Notes: generated from the sequence alone by a model not told the origin. A DNA stretch of 64,000 nucleotides from Candidatus Magasanikiibacteriota bacterium (GCA_041674805.1 JBAYVA010000003.1:91029-155028); one strand, 5' to 3'; counted from the stretch's first letter, positions 12,414 to 49,980 are shown. Numbers and translations: made by a program.

Positions 12414-13112
12414 TTATTTTTGAGAAAGTTCTTTTACTTTTTCAAAAAATTTATCTATACTTGAAACAAAATATAATAAATTTGATGTATTATCTTGTTC
12501 TTTTGAACCAAAATTATAAACCTCAGTAAAACCAAATAATTGAGAAATTTTATATAAATTACTATCTTTACTTGTCCAAAAACAAAAATGATTAACACCA
12601 GAAAGTTTAGCTTTTTTGAACAAAGGGACAACTAAGTTAATCAATTTTTCTAATCCTCCTCTATTATCGGCTCTCATACCAAACTCACGAACAGCTAATA
12701 CAGAATCCACATCAGGAAAAAATCTTAAAGCACTTTCAACAACATCCTTTTTAATATCATCGTCTTTAAAATTTTTAGGTAAATCTGTAATATTACCTAT
12801 ATTATCAACAAAATAAGCATGAGCAAAACCCACAACTTCTTCTTGTTCATTCAAAAACAAATTTAAATATTCATCAGAACCTTGACTGTCTATTTTCATT
12901 AACATATTCAAAACTTTTTCTTCATCCCAAACTTCATCCCACTGTGATTTATCTTCACCAAATTCTTTACTTTTATTAGCATCAAAAACAGAAATATAAC
13001 AATTTATATAACTTTTTAATAAACTATCATTTTTAAGCAATTCTGACAAAGAAACTAATTTTAAATTACCTGTTTTTTTTGGTTCTTTATCCCTTGAGAG
13101 ACCTTCTACCAT
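12414..13112 (-). CDS. Hypothetical protein, possible GNAT-fold acetyltransferase
   Basis: C-terminal segment LAVREFGMRADNRGGLEKLINLV...NHFCFWTSKDSNLYKISQLFGFTEV resembles GNAT motif A/B (R-x-x-G-x-G ... N ... GF). Weak. Confidence 0.3.
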   Translation of the reverse strand: MVEGLSRDKEPKKTGNLKLVSLSELLKNDSLLKSYINCYISVFDANKSKEFGEDKSQWDEVWDEEKVLNMLMKIDSQGSDEYLNLFLNEQEEVVGFAHAYFVDNIGNITDLPKNFKDDDIKKDVVESALRFFPDVDSVLAVREFGMRADNRGGLEKLINLVVPLFKKAKLSGVNHFCFWTSKDSNLYKISQLFGFTEVYNFGSKEQDNTSNLLYFVSSIDKFFEKVKELSQK

Positions 13113-36463: not shown

Positions 36464-37918
36464 ATGAAAAAACTATTTTTACTTTTAATGTTTGGTTTTT
36501 TATTTTTTCCAAACACCTCCCAAGCTTTTGACCAAAGATGTTGGGTAAAAGAAGACTGTGACAATTACCGTGCTTCTTTTGGTAACGTAGAAGCAGAAGA
36601 AGGTTTTTATAGTGCTGCCAAAAATTCTGATGCCAAAAGTATTTGTAAAACTAATGAAAATGGTAAAGATGTCTTAGGTAGAGACATTGGATTATGTCTA
36701 CCTGTTGGCAAAAGTGTTACCAATATAAGTTTTGGAGGCAGAAATGAATTCACTAATATTGGTGATTTTTTAAAATTCTTTTATCAATATGGTTTTGTAG
36801 TAGCCTCTGTCGTAGCTGTAATAATCATCATCGTATCTGGCATCATGTACATTTATTCTGGTGGCAATTCAGATACAGTCGGACAAGCTAAGAAAAAAAT
36901 TTTTGGAGCGGTCATCGGACTAGTTTTATTGGCTTTTGCCTATACTCTCTTAAATAATATCAATCCTTATTTAGTAAACTTACGTATGCCTGGTATTTGG
37001 GCTATAAATACTATGGGTATAGCTCCAGCAAGATGTGAACAATTGGACAAAAATTTAAAAGTTGGTTTAGCAACAACACCCACAACAGCTGTTCCTTATG
37101 ATCAAACAACATGGTTTTTACCAAGTAACACAACGCCTACAATTTGTGGTAATGACTACTATGTAGATAAAACAAATGGACAATTTTGTGAAGGAAATGC
37201 TTGTACACAAAAAAATTACTTATGTTTTAAAGGAATTAATGATCAATTAAGTTCATGCCAAACTGGTAAAATACTAGGACAAGTTTATTCTACTAGTATT
37301 CTAGATAATGCTTTTGGTCAAAAAGGAGGTTTAAATAGTTTAGCTATAGATGTTTTTTTTGATTATTGGGGTTGGATATGGTCAGATGATGTTGAAGTAT
37401 GGATAATGTGTGGGGAAAAACAAACTAATGGATCTGTGACAGGTGAAAAAAATGTAGAAAGAAATGGTATTGATGATGACGATGGTATTGAGATAAATAT
37501 AGATGAAGTAAAAAAAAGACAACAATTTATTTTAAACTATAACGAAACTCAATTAAATGATTTAATTAATGAATGTGACGATCAAAAATATTTAGGATTT
37601 GCTATAGGATTTAATTTAAATACAGCAGCAAATGGAACAGATGTACAACACCTAATAGGATTAGACGAAAACAAAAATCCTATTGATTTATGTGATATGC
37701 CAGATAAAGGAGTTGGTGGAAATTGGGATGAAACTTTTTGTGAAAATCTAGCACATACAATCAAACCTGGTATACCAAAAGAATACTGGATTACAAAAGA
37801 ACAAATGATGGAAGGATTTGTAATGAATCTAGATGTATCAAAAATACCTTCAATATCTACAGATGAAACAAAAAGAGAAAGAGCTTATGCTAAATGGGGA
37901 TACAAAGCACCAAAATAA
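36464..37918 (+). CDS. Secreted/membrane Cys-rich hypothetical protein with a pilin-like double-TM hairpin
   Basis: Signal peptide ([21 protein letters not shown]). Two adjacent hydrophobic helices separated by [13 protein letters not shown], which is VirB2/TrbC-like topology. Then about 300 aa with more than 15 Cys and acidic patches. Confidence 0.35.
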
Positions 37919-37932
37919 AAATTAAAACAAAT

Positions 37933-40761
37933 ATGCAAGATAAAATAAAAGTAATAAACGCTCGAGTACACAATTTAAAAAATGTCTCAGTCGAAATACC
38001 AAAAAATAAATTAACAATTATCACTGGTTTATCTGGTTCTGGTAAATCATCACTCGCTTTTGACACTATTTATGCAGAAGGTCAAAGACGCTATGCTGAA
38101 AGTCTAAATGCTTATGCCAGACAATTCATGGATATGCAAGACAAACCAGATGTAGACGAAATCCAAGGTCTCTCCCCTACTATTGCTATCAACCAAAGAA
38201 ATTTTGCCAAAAATCCCCGCTCTACTGTTGGCACAACTACCGAAATTTATGATTACTTGCGTCTGCTTTTTGCTCGCATCGGCAAGCAATGGTGTCCAAC
38301 TTGTAATATCCCTGTAGAATTTTTTAACTCAGGAAAAATCATTGAAGAAATTAGAAAATTAAAGAAAAAAAATTCTGAACTTTTTTTGTTGTCACCAATT
38401 TTACGCCAACAAAAAGTAAATCTAAAAAATTTAAAAATAAAAATAGAAAAAACTGGTTATAGTAATTTTCTGATCAATAGCGTCAACGTCTCTATCGCCA
38501 ATCTAAAAAATTTCAAATTCAATTCAGATTATTTGTACGATATAGATATTGTCATCGAAAGATTGAGTCAAATTTCTCTTAGTGATCTTACCAAACATGT
38601 AGAAAAAGCATTAGACTATTCCAATGGCTTTGTCAAAATTTATGATGAAGACAAAGATGAAACAATTACCTACTCCCAAGTACCAATGTGTAGTCAATGT
38701 TCTCGTGTATTTGAACCAGTTGAACCTCGCACTTTTAGTTTCAATAGTCCTTATGGAGCTTGTCCTCGTTGTACAGGTCTTGGCAGAACTCTAGAAGTAG
38801 ATACCGAACTTGTCATACCAAATCCAAAACTAACAATTGAAGAAGGCGCTATCCAACCTTGGACCAGACTTGTTGGTAACCAAATTTACTATCAAGAACT
38901 TATTGCCAAAGTAGCCGAAGCTCACAATTTTTCAGTAGACATACCAGTAGAACAATTACCAAAAAAAGTAATTGATATAATTTTTTATGGTACGGAAAAA
39001 CAAGAATACGAAATAAATGGTAAAAAAACAATTTATGAAGGTGTCGTACCTCATTTAACCAACAAATATCTTACTAGTAAATCAGAATACATCAAAAAAG
39101 AAATAGAAAGTTACATGCACGAAAAAGCTTGTTCTATTTGTGATAAAAAAAGATTGAAAAAAGAAAGTTTATATGTAAAAATTTCAGATTTTAGTATTGC
39201 CGATATTGTAGAAATGAGTATTGGCGAAGCTCTAACTTTTTTCAAAGATATAGAAAAAGGTAAATCAGAACTCACCAAAAAATTAGAAGAAAAACAAATA
39301 GAAGTAGCGGTATCTATTTCCAAAGAAATACGTCGTCGTCTTGATCATATAGAAAAAGTAGGTTTGTCTTATTTAACATTGGATAGATCTGTTAGTACTC
39401 TTTCTGGTGGTGAATCACAAAGAGTAAGATTGTCAACTCAATTGTCTGCAGGCTTATCTGGAATTATCTATATCTTGGACGAACCATCTATTGGTTTACA
39501 TCCAAAAGACAATGCCAAACTAATAGAAACTTTGAAATCTCTAAGAGACTCTGGTAATACTGTCATCGTCGTAGAACACGATCAAGCTATTATGGAAGCC
39601 GCTGACTATCTTATTGACATTGGTCCTGGCGCCGGTGAATACGGCGGTCAAATCATGGCTTCTGGCACAGCTGAACAAGTCAAAAAAGACAACAAATCCA
39701 TGACCGGACGTTATTTAAGTAAAAAAGAAAAAATAGATATTCCCAAAAAACCTCGCAAAGGCAATGGCAAAGATATACGTATAGAAGGTGCAACTGCCAA
39801 CAACTTAAAAAATATTGACGTGAGTATTCCACTAGGTAAATTGGTGAGTATTACTGGTGTTTCTGGTTCTGGAAAATCTACTCTTATCTTAGATATTTTG
39901 AGCAAAGAATTAGCCAAAAAATTCTACCGTGCCAAAGATGAACCAGGTGATCACAAGACTATCAAAGGATTGAATAATATAGACAAAGTCATTACTATTG
40001 ACCAAACTCCTATCGGACGTACCCCTCGCAGTAATCCTGCTACATACACTGGGATATTTACTCTCATTCGTGATTTGTTTGCTGAATTACCAGAATCAAA
40101 AATGTTAAGTTATAGTGCTGGTACTTTTAGTTTCAATGTCAAAGGTGATGGACGTTGTGAAGCTTGTGGAGGTGAAGGTTATGTAACTATTCCAATGCAT
40201 TTTTTGAATGATGTTTATGTAGAATGTAGTGAATGTCATGGTACTCGCTATACTCGTGACGTTCTTGAAATCCATCACAAAGACAAAAATATTGCTGAAA
40301 TATTAAATATGACTGTAGAAGAAAGTTACAAATTTTTTATGCATGACAAAAATATTGCTGAAAAATTACAAGTCTTACGCAATGTAGGCTTAGGTTACTT
40401 ACAACTTGGTCAACCAGCTACCACTCTCTCTGGTGGTGAGGCGCAACGTATCAAACTAGCGACTGAATTGTCTCGTCGTTCAACTGGCAAAACTCTTTAC
40501 ATTCTTGATGAACCAAGTACTGGTTTGCACTTTGAAGACATCAAAAAACTTTTACACGTTTTAAATCAACTGGTAGACAAAGGCAATACTGTGCTTATCA
40601 TCGAACACAATTTGGATATTATCAAATCAAGTGACTGGATAATAGATTTAGGTCCTGAAGGTGGCAAAGCTGGCGGTGAAGTAGTTGCTGAAGGTACAGT
40701 AGAAGACGTCATCAAAGTAAAAAAGAGTTGGACTGGAAAGTATTTGAAGGGAGTGGTGTAA
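37933..40761 (+). CDS. uvrA: Excinuclease ABC subunit A
   Basis: Two ABC ATPase modules ([22 protein letters not shown]) and zinc-finger CxxC motifs. Start reassigned to [17 protein letters not shown]. Confidence 0.95.
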
Positions 40762-40879
40762 AACTAATAAAATTAAATGAAAACAGAGTTGAAAGGCTCT
40801 GTTTTTTGTGGTTGCAAGAAAATTCCAATAATGATAGACTTAAAATACAATAAATTAAAATTGTTAAATATAAAAATTT

Positions 40880-41719
40880 ATGCCAGAAGAAAGTTTACTT
40901 AAAAAAAATGATGCAATAACCTTTTTAAATATTAATGAGGGAGAGTTCAAAAACTATAGTACTTTTAGCAATGAAATAGAAGGAGTAAAAATTAAAGGGC
41001 GATGGTATTTTGATAAGGAAAAACTTAATATATGGAAACAATTAAAAAAAGAAAGGACAATAAATTTATCAATAAAAGAATACGAAACTTGTTTTGAGTT
41101 TGCTATAAAAATGGTTTATGGCGGACTTTCTTTAAATGGAATAAGAGGACAAAGAACAGAAGTTCAAGCTGCTGATGATATAATACTTGGAATATTAGCC
41201 GAACATGCAATCAAAAAATTTCTATACAATAAGTTTTCAATTGATATAAAATTAGACGAATCTGTACATCCAAAAGAAATCACACCTCAAGATTTTGACA
41301 TGATTAAAGATGGTAAAGAATTTAGAATACCAAATCTTGGAGTAGGTATAAAAGCAAGTAAAATAAAAAATGCTTTTTTAGTTTTAGGTTCAAATGAAGT
41401 GGAATTACCTGAAAGAAAAAGTGATGTATATATATTTGCAAGAGTTGGTTTACCAAGTGATCATTTATTTAGAATATTAAGAGATCATTCATTCTTTGGA
41501 AAAGTTAGAAAATTTCTTGATGAAAATATAAATTTTAAAAAAATACTAGAATTAAACACAATTCCAGTTTGGATCTGTGGTTTTGCTTATGTAAATGAAC
41601 TTGAACGAGTAACAGAAATACCAAATCAAAAATTCACTAAGGGCCATAGATATGTAAAAGCTGTTGGTAAACTTCATAACTCTGATACAGAATGGCAAAA
41701 TTTTCTTCAAAAATTATAA
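40880..41719 (+). CDS. Hypothetical protein; candidate restriction endonuclease partner of the adjacent C5-MTase
   Basis: No recognisable family. Call rests only on convergent position immediately next to the methyltransferase gene. Confidence 0.2.
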   Translation: MPEESLLKKNDAITFLNINEGEFKNYSTFSNEIEGVKIKGRWYFDKEKLNIWKQLKKERTINLSIKEYETCFEFAIKMVYGGLSLNGIRGQRTEVQAADDIILGILAEHAIKKFLYNKFSIDIKLDESVHPKEITPQDFDMIKDGKEFRIPNLGVGIKASKIKNAFLVLGSNEVELPERKSDVYIFARVGLPSDHLFRILRDHSFFGKVRKFLDENINFKKILELNTIPVWICGFAYVNELERVTEIPNQKFTKGHRYVKAVGKLHNSDTEWQNFLQKL

Positions 41720-41721
41720 AA

Positions 41722-43290
41722 TTACTCAATCGCTCTTCTAATCTGTTTTGCGACAGCTTTGACAACAGGAACACTCACAGAATTACCAAATTGTTTATAA
41801 AGAGCTGAATCAGACATACCTTTTGGAAGTTTAAAATCCATTGGAAAACCTTGTATTCTAGCACATTCAAGAGGAGTCAGTTTTCTGATTCCTTTTTTAT
41901 CTTTAATAATTGGTACATTATGTCCACCCATTCCCATATTTGCTGTCAAAGTAGGACAAACACCTTTTTTATTTTCACGAACGTATTTTCTACGCCATTG
42001 ATATACAGTATTTGAATTTGTAACATCACCTTTTATCTTTTCATAAAGAGGTTTACCATCATAATAATATTTTTCATCCACATTATCTTCTAACAAATCT
42101 TTTATACTTTTTTTCAATTTTATTGTGGGTGGAAAATTAAATTTTTCATAATGTTTTTTGTCTCTAAAACCAACAATATAAATTCTTTCTCTATTTTGTG
42201 GCACATTACCATATTCCATACTATTCAAAACTTTTGATTTTACATGATAGCCAAGAGATTCCAAAGTATCCAATATAATTCTAAAAGTTTTTCCATTATC
42301 ATGATTTTTCAAATTTTTTACATTTTCAAGCATGAAACCCATTGGTTTTTTTTCTTTTATAATTCTTGCAACATCAAAAAATAAGTTTCCCCTACCTTTC
42401 TTATCATCAAACCCTTCTCTATATCCTGCAATAGAAAACGCCTGGCAAGGAAACCCTCCAAGCAAAAAATCAAAATCTGGTAGTTTTTTTTCATTTACTT
42501 TTTGAATGTCTTCTACAAAAAGTTGAATTCCATCAAAATTTAAGTCATAAGTGTCTTTACACTTTGGTTCAAAATCATTTGCAAACACAGTTTCAAACCC
42601 AGCTTCTTCAAAACCAAGTCTTATTCCACCAACACCTGCAAACAAATCAATAGTTTTGAAGTTTTTTGTTTTTTGTTGTAATTGACTATTGAAATCCCTA
42701 ATTATTTTTACAACAACACCACGAACTTCTACTTCTGTACGATAAAATGGAAGCAAATTTTGATTTGCTGGTTGTAATTTGAATCTATTTTTCTCTTTGT
42801 ATAACTTTTTTAAAGTTGCTTCATTTTCATCTACGATAGCAACTACTGTTTGTCCATTATCTGCATAATCTTGTTTCTTTATTACCACAATATCACCATC
42901 GAAAATACCATCTTCAATCATACTGTCACCAGAAACTTTCAAAGCATACAATTGTTCAGGATCAAAATAAGTATCTCTCGCAATAGTGATAGTATCTCCT
43001 CTAGTTTCTAATGCTTCAATTGGTTGACCAGCAGTAATTGTGCCAACAAGTGGAATTTCTAAAGTATCAATTTTACCAAGTTCTCTAATACTAAGGCCTC
43101 TTGTAGCATTTTCATCCCGCATAATATAACCTTTATCAATAAGTGCGTCTACATGTTGATATACACCAGACAGAGCATTAAGTTTAAAATTTTTTTTCAA
43201 CTCTTCAAAAGTAGGAGAATAACCTTTTTTTTCTATAAAAGATTTTATGTAATCAAAAATTTGTTTTTGTCTCTTAGTTAAACTAGGCAT
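41722..43290 (-). CDS. LexA-like repressor (wHTH + S24 peptidase) fused to a DNA (cytosine-5)-methyltransferase
   Basis: Residues 1-200 align to LexA along its length. LTKRQKQIFDYI matches LTARQQEVFDLI. IPLVGTITAGQPI carries the Ala-Gly self-cleavage site. LKVSGDSMIEDGIFDGDIVVIKK carries the catalytic Ser. VVAIVDENEATLKKL carries the catalytic Lys. The C-terminus has C5-MTase motifs: I DLFAGVGGIRLGF, IV GGFPCQAFSIAG, VI ENV, X QFGNSVSVPV. Confidence 0.8.
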   Translation of the reverse strand: MPSLTKRQKQIFDYIKSFIEKKGYSPTFEELKKNFKLNALSGVYQHVDALIDKGYIMRDENATRGLSIRELGKIDTLEIPLVGTITAGQPIEALETRGDTITIARDTYFDPEQLYALKVSGDSMIEDGIFDGDIVVIKKQDYADNGQTVVAIVDENEATLKKLYKEKNRFKLQPANQNLLPFYRTEVEVRGVVVKIIRDFNSQLQQKTKNFKTIDLFAGVGGIRLGFEEAGFETVFANDFEPKCKDTYDLNFDGIQLFVEDIQKVNEKKLPDFDFLLGGFPCQAFSIAGYREGFDDKKGRGNLFFDVARIIKEKKPMGFMLENVKNLKNHDNGKTFRIILDTLESLGYHVKSKVLNSMEYGNVPQNRERIYIVGFRDKKHYEKFNFPPTIKLKKSIKDLLEDNVDEKYYYDGKPLYEKIKGDVTNSNTVYQWRRKYVRENKKGVCPTLTANMGMGGHNVPIIKDKKGIRKLTPLECARIQGFPMDFKLPKGMSDSALYKQFGNSVSVPVVKAVAKQIRRAIE

Positions 43291-43401
43291 AAGACTATTG
43301 ACTATTTAATTAATTTAGGTATATAATATCATTATACCGAAAATTAACAGAATTTAAAAGCTATCTTTATCCACAGTTTAAATTAACAAAAGAATAGACA
43401 T

Positions 43402-44808
43402 ATGATTAAAAAAGAGGAGATAGATTTAAAAGTCAAAGAATTTAAAATTCACAGATCAAATGTAGAACGTGACTATATCTTTGGATGGTTTCTTTTTGGA
43501 TTATTCACAATAAGTGATCTAAAAGAAAATATTTTTTTAAAAGGAGGTAATGCATTACGTAAGTGCTACTTTGAAAACACACGTTTTTCTTCGGATATAG
43601 ACTTAGGAATACCTGGGGACATTAATCAAGAAATATTAATGACAGAAATAAACAAAGTATGTGACTTTATACAAAATAAAACAAAGATACTATTTTCAAA
43701 AGAAGAAAATCGTATTGATGAAAAATTTTCAGCAACTGATGCCCCAATACCTGATCTAAAAGTCTACGAAGTAAGAATATATTTCAAAGACTTTTATGGA
43801 GATGCAGATCATTTAAAAATAAAAATATCAATGGACATAACTAGATTTGACAAAGTCTTACTACCAATTCAAAACTTAGATTTAATACACCCATATTCTG
43901 ATAAAAATCAGTTAAACTGTAAAATCAGATGCATGAAGCTGGAAGAAATAATAGCAACAAAACTTAAATGTATTCTACAAAGGCAACATGCCCCTGATTT
44001 ATTTGACTATGTCTATTCAATAAAACTACCTGAGAGTACTCTCAATAGAAAAGAACTAATTCAAACTTTTATCAAAAAAACAATATTTTCTAAAAACCCA
44101 CACGTAGTTAAAGAAATACTAATTAAAACACAATTCAAATATTTTAAAGAAATGTGGACTAAAACTATTATCTGTGCAAAATCTATTATGTTTGATGTAG
44201 AAGGAGCAATAGAAACTTTTATTTCTGATATGGAAGAAATATTTAAAATTTATCCCAATAGTGGATTACGAAATTTTACTTTTTTCGAAGCTACTTTAAG
44301 ATTACCGATAATGGAAGCCGGAAGAGCACAAACTCTGTTGAAAGTAACTTACAAAAATGAAGAACGAATATTAGAACCATACTCATTAAAGTATAAAGAA
44401 AGAAAAGATGGTACAGAATGGGAATATTTATACGCTTATAAATTAAACGGTGGAAAAAGTGAACCAGGCATAAGAAGTTTTCTTGCAAAAGACTTTCAGT
44501 CCATAGAGAATACAGAAAAAAAATTTACACCACAATATCAAATTGAACTATGTAAAGCTGGTGAAATACCAGAAAAAAAATACCTTTTTGACCAAAATAA
44601 ACCAGCCAAAAGACCAAAATTAAAAAACATTTTTAATTCTTATCTAGGTAAAATCAAAAATGAAATCCGATACATTTATGAATGTAATTATTGTGGAAAA
44701 AAATTTACAAAAAATAAAAATACCCCCATTATTAGAAAGCATAAAACAAAAGGTGGATATCTTTGCAATAGTGTTTATGGATATTATATAGATACAAAAT
44801 ATTATTAA
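43402..44808 (+). CDS. AbiEii/AbiGii-family nucleotidyltransferase (type IV toxin-like) with a C-terminal Cys-cluster extension
   Basis: N-terminal VERDYIFGWFLFGLF...FLKGGNALRKCYFENTRFSSDIDL matches the DUF1814/AbiEii signature. 468 aa, versus roughly 300 typical. C-terminal CNYCGKKF...LCN. Confidence 0.65.
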   Translation: MIKKEEIDLKVKEFKIHRSNVERDYIFGWFLFGLFTISDLKENIFLKGGNALRKCYFENTRFSSDIDLGIPGDINQEILMTEINKVCDFIQNKTKILFSKEENRIDEKFSATDAPIPDLKVYEVRIYFKDFYGDADHLKIKISMDITRFDKVLLPIQNLDLIHPYSDKNQLNCKIRCMKLEEIIATKLKCILQRQHAPDLFDYVYSIKLPESTLNRKELIQTFIKKTIFSKNPHVVKEILIKTQFKYFKEMWTKTIICAKSIMFDVEGAIETFISDMEEIFKIYPNSGLRNFTFFEATLRLPIMEAGRAQTLLKVTYKNEERILEPYSLKYKERKDGTEWEYLYAYKLNGGKSEPGIRSFLAKDFQSIENTEKKFTPQYQIELCKAGEIPEKKYLFDQNKPAKRPKLKNIFNSYLGKIKNEIRYIYECNYCGKKFTKNKNTPIIRKHKTKGGYLCNSVYGYYIDTKYY

Positions 44809-44809
44809 A

Positions 44810-44838
44810 AAACCACTTTCCCAAGTGGTTTTTAATTT
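44810..44838 (+). terminator. Intrinsic terminator (left copy of a near-identical pair)
   Basis: aaaaaccactttcccaagtggtttttaattt, directly after the AbiEii stop. Confidence 0.65.
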
Positions 44839-44895
44839 GCTAGAAAATACCGATAATGCTAAACTTAGGCTATAATTTATATATCATATTTTGCT

Positions 44896-45513
44896 ATGGA
44901 AAAAAATTATTTAGAAAAAAATATAAAACATTTTAGTCGACGTGAATTTTTTTATCAATTTTTACTTGCTTTAGTTCCCTACTATTTGGGAGTAAAAATT
45001 GGAGTAAAGCAGAGTTGGGGTAATCTTATGATTGGCATTCTACTAGGTTTTATTGTGGTTATTTTTTTATATCTACGTGATCATAGTGTCAAAAATCTTA
45101 AAAATTATACAAAAGGATTGAAACTAGAAAAACAACTACAGAAAAAATTAGACACAATGAATATCACCTATGAAAAAAATCTTAAGACAAACAATGGTGA
45201 TTTAGATTTATTAATCCAAAAAAATAATAATTATTATGGTATAGAAATCAAAAATTGGTCTGGTACTGTCGAATGGAAAAATAACCTTCTTATGTCTGGG
45301 ATATATGACAAGACAGACATATTGAAAAAATTGTTGGGCAGTTGTCTTTTTATAAAAAATAGTAAATTTGGTGAAAATCCAAAAATATTTGTAAAACCTG
45401 TCCTTGTCTTTGGCTACGAAACCAACTTAAAAATACCAAACAACAAAATCATATTCCACAATATAGAAATACTCATATTTAGCATACAAGATTTACCACA
45501 AAATTTAAATTAA
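44896..45513 (+). CDS. Membrane-anchored NERD-like / PD-(D/E)xK nuclease-fold protein
   Basis: Two N-terminal TM helices. GDLDLLIQKNNNYYGIEIKNW gives D...E-I-K spacing typical of NERD/PD-(D/E)xK. Confidence 0.45.
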   Translation: MEKNYLEKNIKHFSRREFFYQFLLALVPYYLGVKIGVKQSWGNLMIGILLGFIVVIFLYLRDHSVKNLKNYTKGLKLEKQLQKKLDTMNITYEKNLKTNNGDLDLLIQKNNNYYGIEIKNWSGTVEWKNNLLMSGIYDKTDILKKLLGSCLFIKNSKFGENPKIFVKPVLVFGYETNLKIPNNKIIFHNIEILIFSIQDLPQNLN

Positions 45514-45568
45514 ATTACTAAACAAAACATGTCTAATGCTAAAATTATTATATAAATAATATTTATCT

Positions 45569-45853
45569 ATGAAAAAATCATTACCCTTTATTTTAGTCCT
45601 CCTCGTCATTATCCTCTCCGCTGCCTACTTACTCTGGCCAAAATACGTTTCTCACGATAAACAAGCCAACAACGTAGAGAAACCTGCCATCGTAGATTTC
45701 TTCGCCTGCGGGGATTATTGTCCCGGCGCACCAGAACAGTACACTGTAAAAGTATATCAAAACGTCACCGATGAAACACAGTGTAAAGATCTTGGTGGCA
45801 CACCAGCTAGCTTCCAAGGTTGGACAGAAGTACATTATTGTCTAGCAGAATAA
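45569..45853 (+). CDS. Small secreted Cys-containing hypothetical protein in a locally GC-rich segment
   Basis: Signal peptide MKKSLPFILVLLVIILSAAYL and 5 Cys. Codon usage is far more GC-rich (about 45%) than the flanks. Confidence 0.5.
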   Translation: MKKSLPFILVLLVIILSAAYLLWPKYVSHDKQANNVEKPAIVDFFACGDYCPGAPEQYTVKVYQNVTDETQCKDLGGTPASFQGWTEVHYCLAE

Positions 45854-45867
45854 AAAATAAATCAACA

Positions 45868-45903
45868 AAAAAACCACTTTCTCAAGTGGTTTTTCTATTT
45901 TTT
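45868..45903. terminator. Bidirectional intrinsic terminator (right copy of the near-identical pair)
   Basis: aaaaaaccactttctcaagtggtttttctatttttt. One loop mismatch relative to 44810-44838. Confidence 0.65.
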
Positions 45904-45909
45904 GAAATA

Positions 45910-46290
45910 TTATTTTACTTCCTCAGCTTTTACTTCTTCAACTACTTTTTCTGTTTTTTCTTCTTTTACTTCTCTCAATTTTTTCTTGTGTGTTCTCAAG
46001 TAATATGGACGAGCTTGAGAAACTTTCATTTGTCTTACTAATTCAATTTTGTCTACTACTGGGGAATGTAAAGGGAAAATTTTCTCTACACCTACGCCTT
46101 CAGAAATTTTACGAACTGTAAATGTTGCTCCAGCTTCTTGACCATGTTTTACAGCGATTACAATTCCTTCATAAAGCTGAATACGTTCTTTTTCTTCTCC
46201 TTTAGCATTGGTTTCTTTTACTTTTTGGTGAACTTTGACAATCATACCTGCCTTAATTTCACCACGAATATCTTTGATTTCTTTTGACAT
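45910..46290 (-). CDS. rplS: 50S ribosomal protein L19 with a K/E-rich C-terminal tail
   Basis: MSKEIKDIRGEIKAGMIVKVHQKV...QLYEGIVIAVKHGQEAGATFTVRKIS core. Track start at 46407 is over-extended; start reassigned to MSKE. Confidence 0.85.
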   Translation of the reverse strand: MSKEIKDIRGEIKAGMIVKVHQKVKETNAKGEEKERIQLYEGIVIAVKHGQEAGATFTVRKISEGVGVEKIFPLHSPVVDKIELVRQMKVSQARPYYLRTHKKKLREVKEEKTEKVVEEVKAEEVK

Positions 46291-46366
46291 ATATTTTTTA
46301 TTTACGAGAGGTTGGCAGTGATTACCCCAACATACAAGATTTTTAATTAAAGTTAGTGCAGACATT

Positions 46367-48036: not shown

Positions 48037-48100
48037 GGGCCAATAGCTCAGTTGGTTAGTCCCGATAACATCGGGATATAACGTTGGGTTGATAGTTCAA
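48037..48100 (+). repeat. tRNA-like pseudo-element, copy 1
   Basis: GGGCCAATAGCTCAGTTGGTTAG + hairpin TCCCGAT-AAC-ATCGGGA + TATAACGTTGGGTTGATAGTTCAA. The tRNA 5' half and a T-arm-like 3' part are present, but D-stem closure and the anticodon stem are replaced by the hairpin. Confidence 0.55.
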
Positions 48101-48120
48101 AAGTTAGTTTTATTTTATTA

Positions 48121-48194
48121 GGGCTAGTAGCTCAGTTGGTTAGAGCACAACGCTTATAACGTTGGGGTCGATGGTTCAAGTCCATCCTAGCCTA
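48121..48194 (+). tRNA. tRNA with anticodon UAU (Ile, AUA-reading) - canonical cloverleaf
   Basis: GGGCTAG-TA-GCTC/AGTTGGTTA/GAGC-A-CAACG/CTTATAA/CGTTG-GGGTC-GATGG/TTCAAGT/CCATC-CTAGCCT-A. Anticodon-loop positions 34-36 are TAT. Confidence 0.7.
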
Positions 48195-48195
48195 C

Positions 48196-48259
48196 AACGT
48201 AGCTCAGTTAGTTATCCCCGATTAAAATCGGAATATAACGTTGGGATTGATAATTCAAT
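48196..48259 (+). repeat. tRNA-like pseudo-element, copy 2
   Basis: GTAGCTCAGTTAGTTA + TCCCCGATTAAAATCGGAA + TATAACGTTGGGATTGATAATTCAA. Abuts the 3' end of the intact tRNA. Confidence 0.5.
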
Positions 48260-48307: not shown

Positions 48308-48580
48308 ATGCATTATATATATTTCTTGTGGAGTGAAAAACTTCAAAAAATATATATAGGTGAAACAACAGACGTTTTGGCAAGAATTGACTACCATAAT
48401 AATGGTAGACAAAGATACACTTCTCGAGGTGTACCTTGGACACCCATTGCTTATATAGAATGTGAAAACAGAAATGAAGCACTTGCCGAAGAAAAGAGAC
48501 TGAAAAAATGTAAAAACAGAAAATACTACAAAAAGTATTTATTGGAAAAAGGAAAGAAGATAAAAAATTATAGAAAATAA
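48308..48580 (+). CDS. Small GIY-YIG nuclease-superfamily protein (YhbQ/UPF0213-like)
   Basis: IYFLWSEKLQKIYIGETTDVLARIDYHNNG...R...EALAEEKRLKK matches the GIY-YIG pattern with catalytic Arg and Glu. 90 aa. Confidence 0.65.
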   Translation: MHYIYFLWSEKLQKIYIGETTDVLARIDYHNNGRQRYTSRGVPWTPIAYIECENRNEALAEEKRLKKCKNRKYYKKYLLEKGKKIKNYRK

Positions 48581-49927: not shown

Positions 49928-49949
49928 TATTTTTTCTTCACAAAAAAAA

Positions 49950-49980
49950 CACTCTCGTCTAGAGAGTGTTTTTGTTTTTT
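49950..49980 (+). terminator. Intrinsic terminator after the histone-like gene
   Basis: acactctcgtctagagagtgt hairpin followed by TTTTGTTTTTT. Confidence 0.65.

Follow-up and report, generated by a model that had tools for sequence, protein, structure and literature searches.

This study concerns a stretch of 64,000 nucleotides (nt) from Candidatus Magasanikiibacteriota bacterium (GCA_041674805.1 JBAYVA010000003.1:91029-155028), called "the window" hereafter in its full 64 kb. It is part of a 744-kb contig (European Nucleotide Archive ERZ27247358 k141_1563332), and the host genome is about 0.74 Mb. Between the core genes uvrA and rplS (40762-45909), the window carries a cargo hotspot. In it we recognise a restriction-modification (R-M) module whose cytosine DNA methyltransferase (MTase) is fused to LexA, an AbiEii-type nucleotidyltransferase with a WYL-like domain, and a NERD nuclease-like gene. 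We are fairly confident of this anatomy and of the identity of the parts. Five open reading frames (ORFs) lie between uvrA and rplS, and all of them, like the two terminator hairpins already marked in the initial annotation, are present, as follows (aa, amino acids; HTH, helix-turn-helix; wHTH, winged HTH).

37933-40761, plus strand: uvrA, with Pfam UvrA domains; left core-gene boundary of the hotspot.
40780-40805, plus strand: terminator-like hairpin of uvrA, found by the terminator scan on the minus strand; plus-strand RNA at -13.9 kcal/mol, z = -4.3.
40880-41719, plus strand: ORF-A, 279 aa, probable type II restriction endonuclease.
41722-43290, minus strand: LexA-S24-Dcm fusion, 522 aa, made of LexA (wHTH), S24 peptidase and C5 cytosine methyltransferase.
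Within the fusion, minus strand: LexA DNA-binding part at ~43096-43290, S24 part at ~42697-43053, MTase part at ~41737-42660.
43298-43327, plus strand: outward sigma70-like promoter (TTGACT-18-TATAAT), 11/12 match, predicted promoter of AbiEii.
43331-43336, minus strand: -10 box of the MTase promoter, overlapped by the direct-repeat operator.
43336-43352, minus strand: direct-repeat operator TTCTGT-N5-TTCGGT, candidate site of the LexA domain.
43367-43375, minus strand: TGTGGATAA box, upstream edge of the conserved module DNA.
43402-44808, plus strand: AbiEii-like gene, 468 aa (Pfam, PADLOC, AlphaFold2, Foldseek).
44809-44832, plus strand: left hairpin copy, a lineage-specific terminator hairpin with its ortholog in L094 at 12439-12460.
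44854-44882, plus strand: diverged duplicate of the small gene's promoter segment (direct repeat D4), now 5' of NERD.
44896-45513, plus strand: NERD-like gene, 205 aa, membrane-anchored and PD-(D/E)xK-like; a single-gene insertion.
45569-45853, plus strand: small secreted or membrane-anchored ORF, 94 aa, with a hydrophobic N-terminus and cysteines; resident anchor gene.
45870-45893, both strands: right hairpin copy, a bidirectional terminator common to the small gene and rplS.
45910-46365, minus strand: rplS (Ribosomal_L19, 1.4e-30), in synteny with L093, L094 and L133-L139; right core-gene boundary.

For comparison, loci of about 17 kb per genome were collected (L numbers), the close relatives being obtained through a metagenome scan with gmk and from the cluster (90% identity) to which the small ORF belongs; rplS and AbiEii, looked up by exact match, returned the same strain only. 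All relatives keep one backbone, namely a T4SS-pilin-like gene, uvrA, the small gene (which sits between uvrA and rplS in L133-L139 as well), then rplS-gmk-rluD. What is carried on either side of the small gene differs between them:

Window: ORF-A, LexA-Dcm, AbiEii and NERD between uvrA and the small gene; nothing between the small gene and rplS.
L094 (uvrA 86% identical in aa): one GIY-YIG/DUF4357 gene between uvrA and the small gene; a Fic gene between the small gene and rplS.
L133-L138: an N6_N4 MTase with ResIII/SNF2 (type III R-M), T5orf172, WYL and NYN between uvrA and the small gene; an HTH-Panacea pair (Panacea-antitoxin) between the small gene and rplS.
L139: a Dam-like MTase, GmrSD, a MutH-like gene and an N4/N6 MTase between uvrA and the small gene; the Panacea pair and one further gene between the small gene and rplS.

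Since four different cargo sets occupy one backbone in related Magasanikbacteria genomes, the interval is a true defence hotspot. The initial annotation had called it a compact defence island and proposed a check of uvrA...rplS synteny in relatives; that check, once run, bore it out, cargo being variably present and gene order not conserved throughout. Compared with L094, the window loses DNA homology exactly at the stop codon of uvrA (uvrA itself being 80% identical in nt) and regains it at the left hairpin. There is no integrase or transposase within ~10 kb of the locus (and no integrase in the ~21 kb around it), and neither an integrase nor a tRNA at the hotspot junctions. The resident scaffold would then consist of the conserved small secreted-protein gene and the lineage-specific two-copy terminator hairpin, with defence and toxin genes exchanged around it among related strains. 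The window genome carries three independent cargo units: the R-M module, the AbiEii-type gene and the NERD gene. We also note that in the same hotspot slot of L133 (6753-7812) a stand-alone WYL protein of 85 aa is encoded directly upstream of a 266-aa NYN-domain RNase, in what looks like a two-gene sensor/effector pair.

The first of these units, the most unusual cargo of the hotspot, is built around the fusion gene, whose original label of LexA-MTase is confirmed by its Pfam matches (LexA_DNA_bind 1.2e-16, Peptidase_S24 1.2e-28, DNA_methylase 3.8e-98) and by its first 200 residues, which match TIGR00498 (lexA) at 183.5 bits against a cutoff of 111. The MTase part matches PF00145 at 329 bits and TIGR00675 at 360 bits, its best match in the PDB being M.HhaI (224 bits). 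Aligned with E. coli LexA over the whole length of the latter, the N-terminus shows 33% identity, and A87-G88, S123 and K161 of the fusion align to A84-G85, S119 and K156 of E. coli LexA. In 22 aligned fusions there is no variation in the Ala-Gly cleavage site, the GDSM serine or the catalytic lysine, nor in the PCQ and ENV motifs of the MTase. The fusion carries a complete and apparently cleavable LexA. The MTase variable region is highly conserved across all fusions aligned.

Fusions of the LexA-S24-Dcm type are common among Patescibacteria, and the same three domains are present in all of at least 120 protein clusters (65-95% identity). A scan of one genome per species gave 32 fused loci, almost all labelled as Patescibacteria lineages, together with unfused homologues, 51-73% identical, in Nanosyncoccus, DPANN archaea, Streptococcus, Clostridia and others. 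Public names for the fusion proteins are either "LexA" or "methyltransferase", and we found no account of the fusion in the searchable literature, which excluded the Patescibacteria SOS paper (Sanchez-Osuna et al. 2017). A phage origin was considered and rejected, as none of the best 80 of 188 viral MTase relatives carries the LexA part.

The DNA around these genes indicates a mobile module. At 95% aa identity, the closest fusion is located after a thymidine kinase gene and has a PDDEXK_5 enzyme as partner; fusions at 81-85% identity have Bsp6I-like partners and lie in further genomic contexts. In L082, L086 and L088, nucleotide homology to the window (80-90%) runs exactly from 43375/43377 to the MTase stop.

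A convergent gene abuts the MTase stop, with the stop codons within a few bases of each other, in 29/30 fused genome loci and also in L085-L088. In the window this gene is ORF-A, tail-to-tail with the fusion at a distance of 2 nt. The partners fall into at least seven mutually unrelated families: RE_Bsp6I (12 loci), a family of ~355 aa without a named family (6 loci), ORF-A (the window and 2 loci), PDDEXK_5 (3 loci), a 349-aa family (2 loci), an NgoFVII-like family (PADLOC REase_II 4e-110; 2 loci) and a family of 271-277 aa (2 loci). The same restriction endonuclease (REase) families flank unfused MTase homologues in bacteria and archaea. M.Bsp6I recognises GCNGC (PMC3141236) and M.NgoFVII recognises GCSGC (PMC10734518). 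Because of these partner families and of the conserved MTase variable region, we think that the module is most likely an R-M system of the GCNGC group (GCNGC/GCSGC). It is abundant in Patescibacteria, and it provides several uncharacterised candidate families of GCNGC-type endonucleases as well as a natural experiment in REase swapping on a fixed methyltransferase.

As for ORF-A itself, the initial annotation had proposed this convergent neighbour of the MTase as a candidate REase and advised the use of defence-system annotators. PADLOC, once run, marked ORF-A as REase_II (PDLC03411, 2.1e-10) and the AbiEii-like protein as AbiEii (5.6e-47). ORF-A has no Pfam match, and its 344 homologues are all named "hypothetical". 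Its AlphaFold2 (AF2) model has a predicted local distance difference test score (pLDDT) of 87.7, and the N-terminal 55 residues form an HTH of the Xis/MerR type (PDB matches to TraN, RacA and BldC, probability 0.8-0.99). HTH_17 is found in 17 of 24 family members, and NOV_C, of the PD-(D/E)xK clan, matches weakly in six of the 24. The predicted core matches phage proteins of 160-190 aa in BFVD (E = 2e-6 to 7e-4, TM 0.6-0.7), two of which are annotated "Restriction endonuclease" (E = 2e-6 to 8e-5). Of the five loci with ORF-A, all but L037 have it convergent with, and directly adjoining, an MTase of this family; L037 has it on the same strand, ~1.2 kb upstream. The PADLOC match, the phage fold matches and the position in the slot that sister modules give to their REases all favour the proposal, and we regard it as quite probable that ORF-A is a restriction endonuclease. 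In several fused modules (L009, L010, L013, L015, L026 and L027) a small XRE-type HTH gene stands beside the REase start; it may encode a controller (C) protein additional to the LexA moiety.

Upstream of the fusions, almost every locus has the consensus block C-TGTGGATAAC, ~13 nt, TTTCGG-N6-TTCGG-T-TATAAT-N3-ATT(A/G)TA. The repeats in it are 11 bp apart and cover the -35 box and spacer, and their position is kept in ~25 loci. In the 64-kb window this operator occurs a single time, and uvrA next door has none upstream. With up to one mismatch allowed, the loci (455 kb in all) give 35 matches, of which 23 are at the fusions' own promoters and the rest are a scatter of one-mismatch sites. The main evidence for predicting that the repeats are the operator of the LexA domain is that they co-vary with its recognition helix:

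Helix STIHEH: repeats TTCGGT / TTCGGT.
Helix SGVYQH (the group of the window): repeats TTC(T/A)GT / TTCGGT.
Helix STAH(Y/H)Y: repeats TTTCTA / TTTCTA.
Helix STVHYH: repeats TTCGA / TTCGA.

Two further elements accompany the operator. The first, the TGTGGATAA box, has one exact copy in the window and is near-invariant, at fixed spacing, in 19/20 aligned promoters. Read as TTATCCACA, it is a perfect DnaA box, ~22 nt upstream of the first operator repeat. It holds the same position in L002-L031, L054, L082, L086 and L088, except that L019 and L023 have it downstream of the -10 box instead. The box is the exact edge of DNA homology between modules, and no conserved TGTGGATAA-like site was found beyond the REase, where a second boundary repeat of the module was sought. 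A DnaA site, a third phased LexA half-site and a recombination joint are all conceivable roles for it. The second element is the outward promoter at 43298-43327, which lies inside the 5' untranslated region of the module, face-to-face with the MTase promoter, its -10 box being the palindromic partner of the MTase -10 box. Equivalent antisense promoters score 11-12/12 in L005, L006 and L086; in L086 the promoter faces a RecQ-like helicase gene, and in the window it faces AbiEii.

These data bear directly on another way of seeing the fusion, namely as the chromosomal SOS master repressor joined to a solitary (epigenetic) methyltransferase, with ORF-A as an unrelated neighbour. In its favour, the N-terminus passes the TIGR00498 equivalog cutoff, NCBI calls relatives "transcriptional repressor LexA", the cleavage residues are without exception intact, conservation of the family across Patescibacteria is strong, no second lexA occurs within the 64-kb window, and in L086 the outward promoter of the module is directed at the RecQ-like helicase gene. 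We nevertheless consider this hypothesis improbable. A solitary methyltransferase does not fit with a convergent REase-type gene in nearly every locus, known REase families included, nor with unfused homologues that are ordinary R-M methyltransferases. A chromosomal master repressor does not fit with a genomic context that differs even at 95% protein identity, nor with an operator that is absent upstream of the adjacent uvrA and gathered at the fusions' own promoters. No multi-gene SOS regulon using this operator was detected in the window or in the 455 kb. A global SOS regulon was likewise rejected, the TGTGGATAA box being unique in the window and the operator matches in the 455 kb being found chiefly at module promoters. 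We thus prefer to see in the fusion the self-regulated methyltransferase of an R-M module.

The second cargo unit is the AbiEii-like gene, described at the outset as enlarged and as an orphan; both traits hold. The match to PF08843 (83.6 bits, 2.7e-23) covers aa 29-230 only, the AbiEii domain being confined to the first 230-260 residues, and the protein belongs to a family of constant length (460-473 aa, 59-65% identical) found mostly in Patescibacteria, and also in Syntrophobacteraceae and Omnitrophota. Its AF2 model (pLDDT 75.9) shows a nucleotidyltransferase (aa 1-285), a five-stranded, WYL-like barrel (aa ~297-375), a disordered linker and a CxxC...H...C zinc ribbon (aa 422-467), with C428, C431, H447 and C455 invariant. 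With Foldseek, the enzyme part matches MenT3/TglT (3e-8) and the barrel matches DriD (3.8e-4) and CapW (1.0e-3), the barrel matches having a probability of 0.99-1.0 and a low TM since one domain alone aligns. The Pfam WYL model (PF13280) matches 10/15 C-terminal fragments, below threshold (best 9.6e-4), and 288 representative clusters, almost all of this same architecture, are found with a profile of the barrel. The AbiEi models of Pfam and PADLOC match none of the neighbouring proteins in the window, and no AbiEi gene is present in five homologue loci (L128-L132) in two distinct contexts. The AbiEii-WYL homologues examined stand alone in islands of Syntrophobacteraceae and Jorgensenbacteria that otherwise resemble defence islands. 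The sequences thus indicate a self-contained, single-protein family (AbiEii-WYL-zinc ribbon), in which the WYL-like barrel and the zinc ribbon probably supply in cis the sensing and restraint that AbiEi gives in two-gene AbiE; on the model, this would be a toxin regulated in cis by a WYL-like sensor that replaces AbiEi.

The initial annotation had raised another possibility, that the LexA wHTH substitutes for the missing AbiEi, so that LexA-Dcm and AbiEii form a functional toxin-regulator pair. The local arrangement is certainly suggestive. The two genes are divergent and 111 bp apart, and the operator lies between the AbiEii promoter and the AbiEii start, where bound LexA-Dcm could block transcription. 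The comparison with other genomes speaks otherwise: this adjacency is seen only in the present genome and a near-identical strain, AbiEii is never a neighbour in the other fused loci (30 from the scan of genomes and L082-L089), and AbiEii-WYL proteins do without LexA-Dcm in the two groups of islands just mentioned. Moreover, the nearest AbiEii relative is 65% identical and those of LexA-Dcm reach 95%, therefore the two genes arrived separately. With a candidate sensor domain in the AbiEii protein itself, we think that such a pair is very unlikely, and we retain the view of a toxin with its own regulator in cis.

The third unit lies between the two hairpins, which were noticed from the start as nearly identical apart from one loop base, and this is correct. 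The left copy reads AAAACCACTT-TCCC-AAGTGGTTTT and the right copy AAAACCACTT-TCTC-AAGTGGTTTT, a 24-nt core in common with one base of the loop different. The similarity reaches ~27 nt, inside a 40-nt pair of 83% identity. The 64 kb contains no further match, even at 3 mismatches (0.03 expected, and 0/100 shuffles reach two). Both fold in a terminator-like manner (-11 to -18 kcal/mol, z = -3.6 to -6.1), the right one at -11.1 kcal/mol on the plus strand and -18.1 kcal/mol on the minus strand. A dispersed repeat was rejected as an explanation, with two copies in 64 kb and copies at this locus alone in relatives. Nor does the hairpin behave as an ordinary terminator standing by itself. Every relative in which both flanks are seen (L094, L133/L136, L139) has two copies; the right one always abuts rplS, and cargo of some kind always lies between them. 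The left copy is 5' of the small gene in the window and L094, and 3' of it in L133 and L139; the rplS-abutting copy is orthologous in L094 and L133 and more diverged (GACCACTT stem) in L139 and L093. A strong terminator hairpin elsewhere in the window (AAAAACACTCTC...GAGAGTGTTTTT, 49945-49973) is 81% similar over 52 nt to the rplS-proximal hairpin region of L094, which hints that related terminators may form a wider family.

The NERD-like gene had been labelled a membrane-anchored NERD/PD-(D/E)xK nuclease, and the label is upheld by a NERD match (PF08378) of 25.0 bits against a cutoff of 22.1. There is also a weak PDDEXK_4 match, the translation shows DLDLL...GIEIK (a D...ExK motif of the PD-(D/E)xK type), and NCBI names it "NERD domain-containing protein". 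We regard the product as a membrane-anchored, nuclease-like protein of PD-(D/E)xK type. The small gene, presented initially as a GC-rich secreted gene, does have a higher G+C content (35-38%, against 24-30% in its neighbours). It is 88% identical in aa and 90% in nt in L094, and its 90% cluster has 12 members, of which all named ones but one are labelled Magasanikbacteria. With its promoter (45521-45875 versus L094 12078-12428) it is 90% identical in nt, the flanks being lower (uvrA 80%, rplS-gmk 71.5%); this identity and the G+C content suggest either recent exchange or unusual constraint.

It was tempting, as was first done, to see the hairpins as the scar of an insertion or duplication by which NERD and the small secreted gene entered as one unit. 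It is precisely these two ORFs that lie between two copies of a 24-27-nt hairpin, two copies likewise bracket some cargo beside rplS in each relative examined, and the Fic gene of L094 has AAACAAAAAA(A)CC on both sides at a hairpin. This reading did not survive comparison, and we hold it to be most unlikely. L094 has both copies of the hairpin and no NERD gene, therefore the pair predates the NERD insertion, and the small gene, given its conservation and cluster, is a resident and not a newcomer. Furthermore, the boundaries of NERD are not the hairpins (there is none after the gene): they are a duplicated promoter segment, 44854-44882 versus 45534-45562 (79% identical). Window 44808-44904 has its aligned counterpart in L094 between the hairpin and the start of the small gene, and NERD is absent from L094 and from L133-L139. 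The lack of an integrase or transposase near the locus adds to these objections. In our preferred reading, the NERD nuclease-like gene would have entered singly, together with a duplicated copy of its neighbour's promoter. Integron-like (attC) cassettes were also rejected, there being no integrase in the ~21 kb around the locus and not every ORF having a hairpin.

The hairpin 3' of the small gene is where the Fic gene of L094 (11105-12095) has been inserted, and the AAACAAAAAA(A)CC flanks of that gene have the look of a target duplication or of crossing-over in the hairpin's A-rich leader. Two-copy hairpins around cargo, together with these flanks, make some hairpin-associated duplication during cargo gain plausible, and the hairpins and the promoter appear to be recurrent recombination joints of the hotspot.

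What could such a module do for its host? R-M systems must avoid killing the host, both at establishment and when methylation falters. The known ways of sparing the host are C-proteins, antisense RNAs and short HTH extensions on methyltransferases. Patescibacteria are reported to largely lack CRISPR and to depend on R-M. The anatomy, conservation and mobility of the module and the covariation of operator and helix are established here; beyond them we infer, tentatively, a damage-sensing regulatory circuit. The LexA part would dimerise and bind the two 11-bp-phased direct repeats over the -35/-10 region of its own promoter, so that synthesis of the methyltransferase would be self-limiting. RecA-stimulated self-cleavage, for instance after self-restriction or other DNA damage, would lift repression and raise methylation; and, as no terminator separates the convergent genes, read-through would oppose expression of the endonuclease. 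If true, a methyltransferase fused to a complete cleavable LexA couples the control of R-M to the RecA damage signal. A safety circuit of this proteolytic kind would account both for the pairing of one conserved MTase-operator unit with at least seven unrelated endonucleases and for its wide spread in the tiny genomes of Patescibacteria. Transcription of AbiEii from its predicted promoter at 43298-43327 would run through the LexA operator, which could give local coupling. The full scheme, in which RecA filaments form, for instance when an under-methylated chromosome is cut by its own endonuclease, and cleavage at the filament boosts methylation and damps the endonuclease by convergent read-through while AbiEii-WYL stands under the same control, is, we admit, somewhat more doubtful still.

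Several points weigh against our interpretation. The DNA binding, cleavage, sequence specificity and regulatory logic of the module, like all activities discussed here, are read from sequence and predicted structure alone. The structure search for a nuclease fold in ORF-A, also advised initially, gave the phage proteins named "Restriction endonuclease" but no significant fold match in the PDB, where matches are limited to the HTH and to weak ones with SwaI and Hjc; nor is a canonical PD-(D/E)xK triad readable. The GCNGC specificity is drawn from the partner REase families alone, and GCNGC is mildly depleted in the window (observed/expected 0.77, with GCSGC at 0.61 and GCGC at 0.99, counts too small to decide). 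With ~17 kb examined per genome, further targets of the LexA part, or another lexA of canonical type, could lie elsewhere. The WYL score of the window AbiEii (13.8 versus 21.8 bits) is below the Pfam threshold, and a profile search of PDB sequences with the WYL-like module found nothing. Finally, our reading does not account for the conserved TGTGGATAA box or for the constant two-copy state of the hairpin. Of the interpretation offered initially, the defence island, the REase candidate and the orphan AbiEii are kept, and the hairpin scar and LexA as a substitute for AbiEi are given up.

Some observations were made outside the hotspot proper. The T4SS-pilin-like gene (36464-37918) ends within the longest uvrA frame; the mechanical ORF start of uvrA at 37894 is probably too early, and the called start is 37933. 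On the other side, a tRNA-Ile gene (anticodon TAT, 48121-48195) stands beside a small GIY-YIG gene (48308-48580), and segments 48041-48088 and 48200-48258 (within 48041-48258) match several sites in L093 and L094 and suggest a small, local family of repeats. In L001 153-1875 (window ~51.4-53.1 kb), a CoA_binding/Ligase_CoA gene adjoins a short (240 aa) Citrate_synt gene. The two resemble a split ATP-citrate-lyase or citryl-CoA module which, if true, would be unexpected for a reduced Patescibacteria genome.

It remains to place these elements among known systems. C5 MTases of the SsoII, EcoRII, Ecl18kI and ScrFI type have an N-terminal regulatory DNA-binding region (review PMC3874152), and the present fusion is like them a type II C5 MTase with an N-terminal DNA-binding extension expected to bind its own promoter and to autoregulate. 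The likeness is one of function, not of family membership. Here a full 200-aa LexA with S24 autoprotease and Ala-Gly site takes the place of the short HTH, and a direct repeat makes up the operator; the R gene converges on the MTase gene and abuts it instead of diverging from it; and the partner REase is swapped among at least seven unrelated families. With canonical LexA (TIGR00498) the fusion shares the domain order, catalytic dyad and cleavage site, as well as an operator overlapping its own promoter. The 11-bp direct-repeat geometry is also that of the Alphaproteobacterial LexA motif GTTC-N7-GTTC, which has the same period (PMC8565304). In contrast to canonical LexA, it forms one polypeptide with a DNA methyltransferase, moves between contexts in company with a restriction gene, and shows no regulon beyond its own promoter in the sequence examined. 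The closest R-M systems are those of Bsp6I/Fnu4HI (GCNGC) and NgoFVII (GCSGC): the MTase family is the same, sister fused modules carry their REases, and Bsp6I-like or NgoFVII-like REases lie beside the unfused homologues (51-73% identity). The window differs in that its REase candidate, ORF-A, is of an uncharacterised family without a Pfam model.

Like AbiE (AbiEi/AbiEii; type IV toxin-antitoxin/abortive infection) and MenT, the window protein has a nucleotidyltransferase of AbiEii/MenT3 fold, in its N-terminal 285 aa; unlike them, it has no AbiEi or MenA partner and has a WYL-like barrel and a zinc ribbon fused in cis. The predicted barrel (aa ~297-375) matches the structures of the WYL regulators DriD and CapW (CapW/BrxR), but is joined to a toxin-type enzyme and not to an HTH transcription factor, and its Pfam WYL match is sub-threshold. 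The AbiEii-WYL-zinc ribbon family thus suggests a one-protein route to the control of AbiE/MenT toxins.

The locus differs from integron gene cassettes, with no integrase in ~21 kb and no hairpin after NERD. It resembles much more the defence islands and integration hotspots in which R-M, type IV restriction, toxin-antitoxin and Abi-like cargo alternate between housekeeping genes. Unlike these, it belongs to a Patescibacteria host of ~0.74 Mb, has no integrase or tRNA at its junctions, and appears to use conserved terminator hairpins and a promoter as recombination joints. The hotspot shows that the dynamics of defence islands extend to genomes as small as ~0.74 Mb, where terminators and promoters serve as joints.

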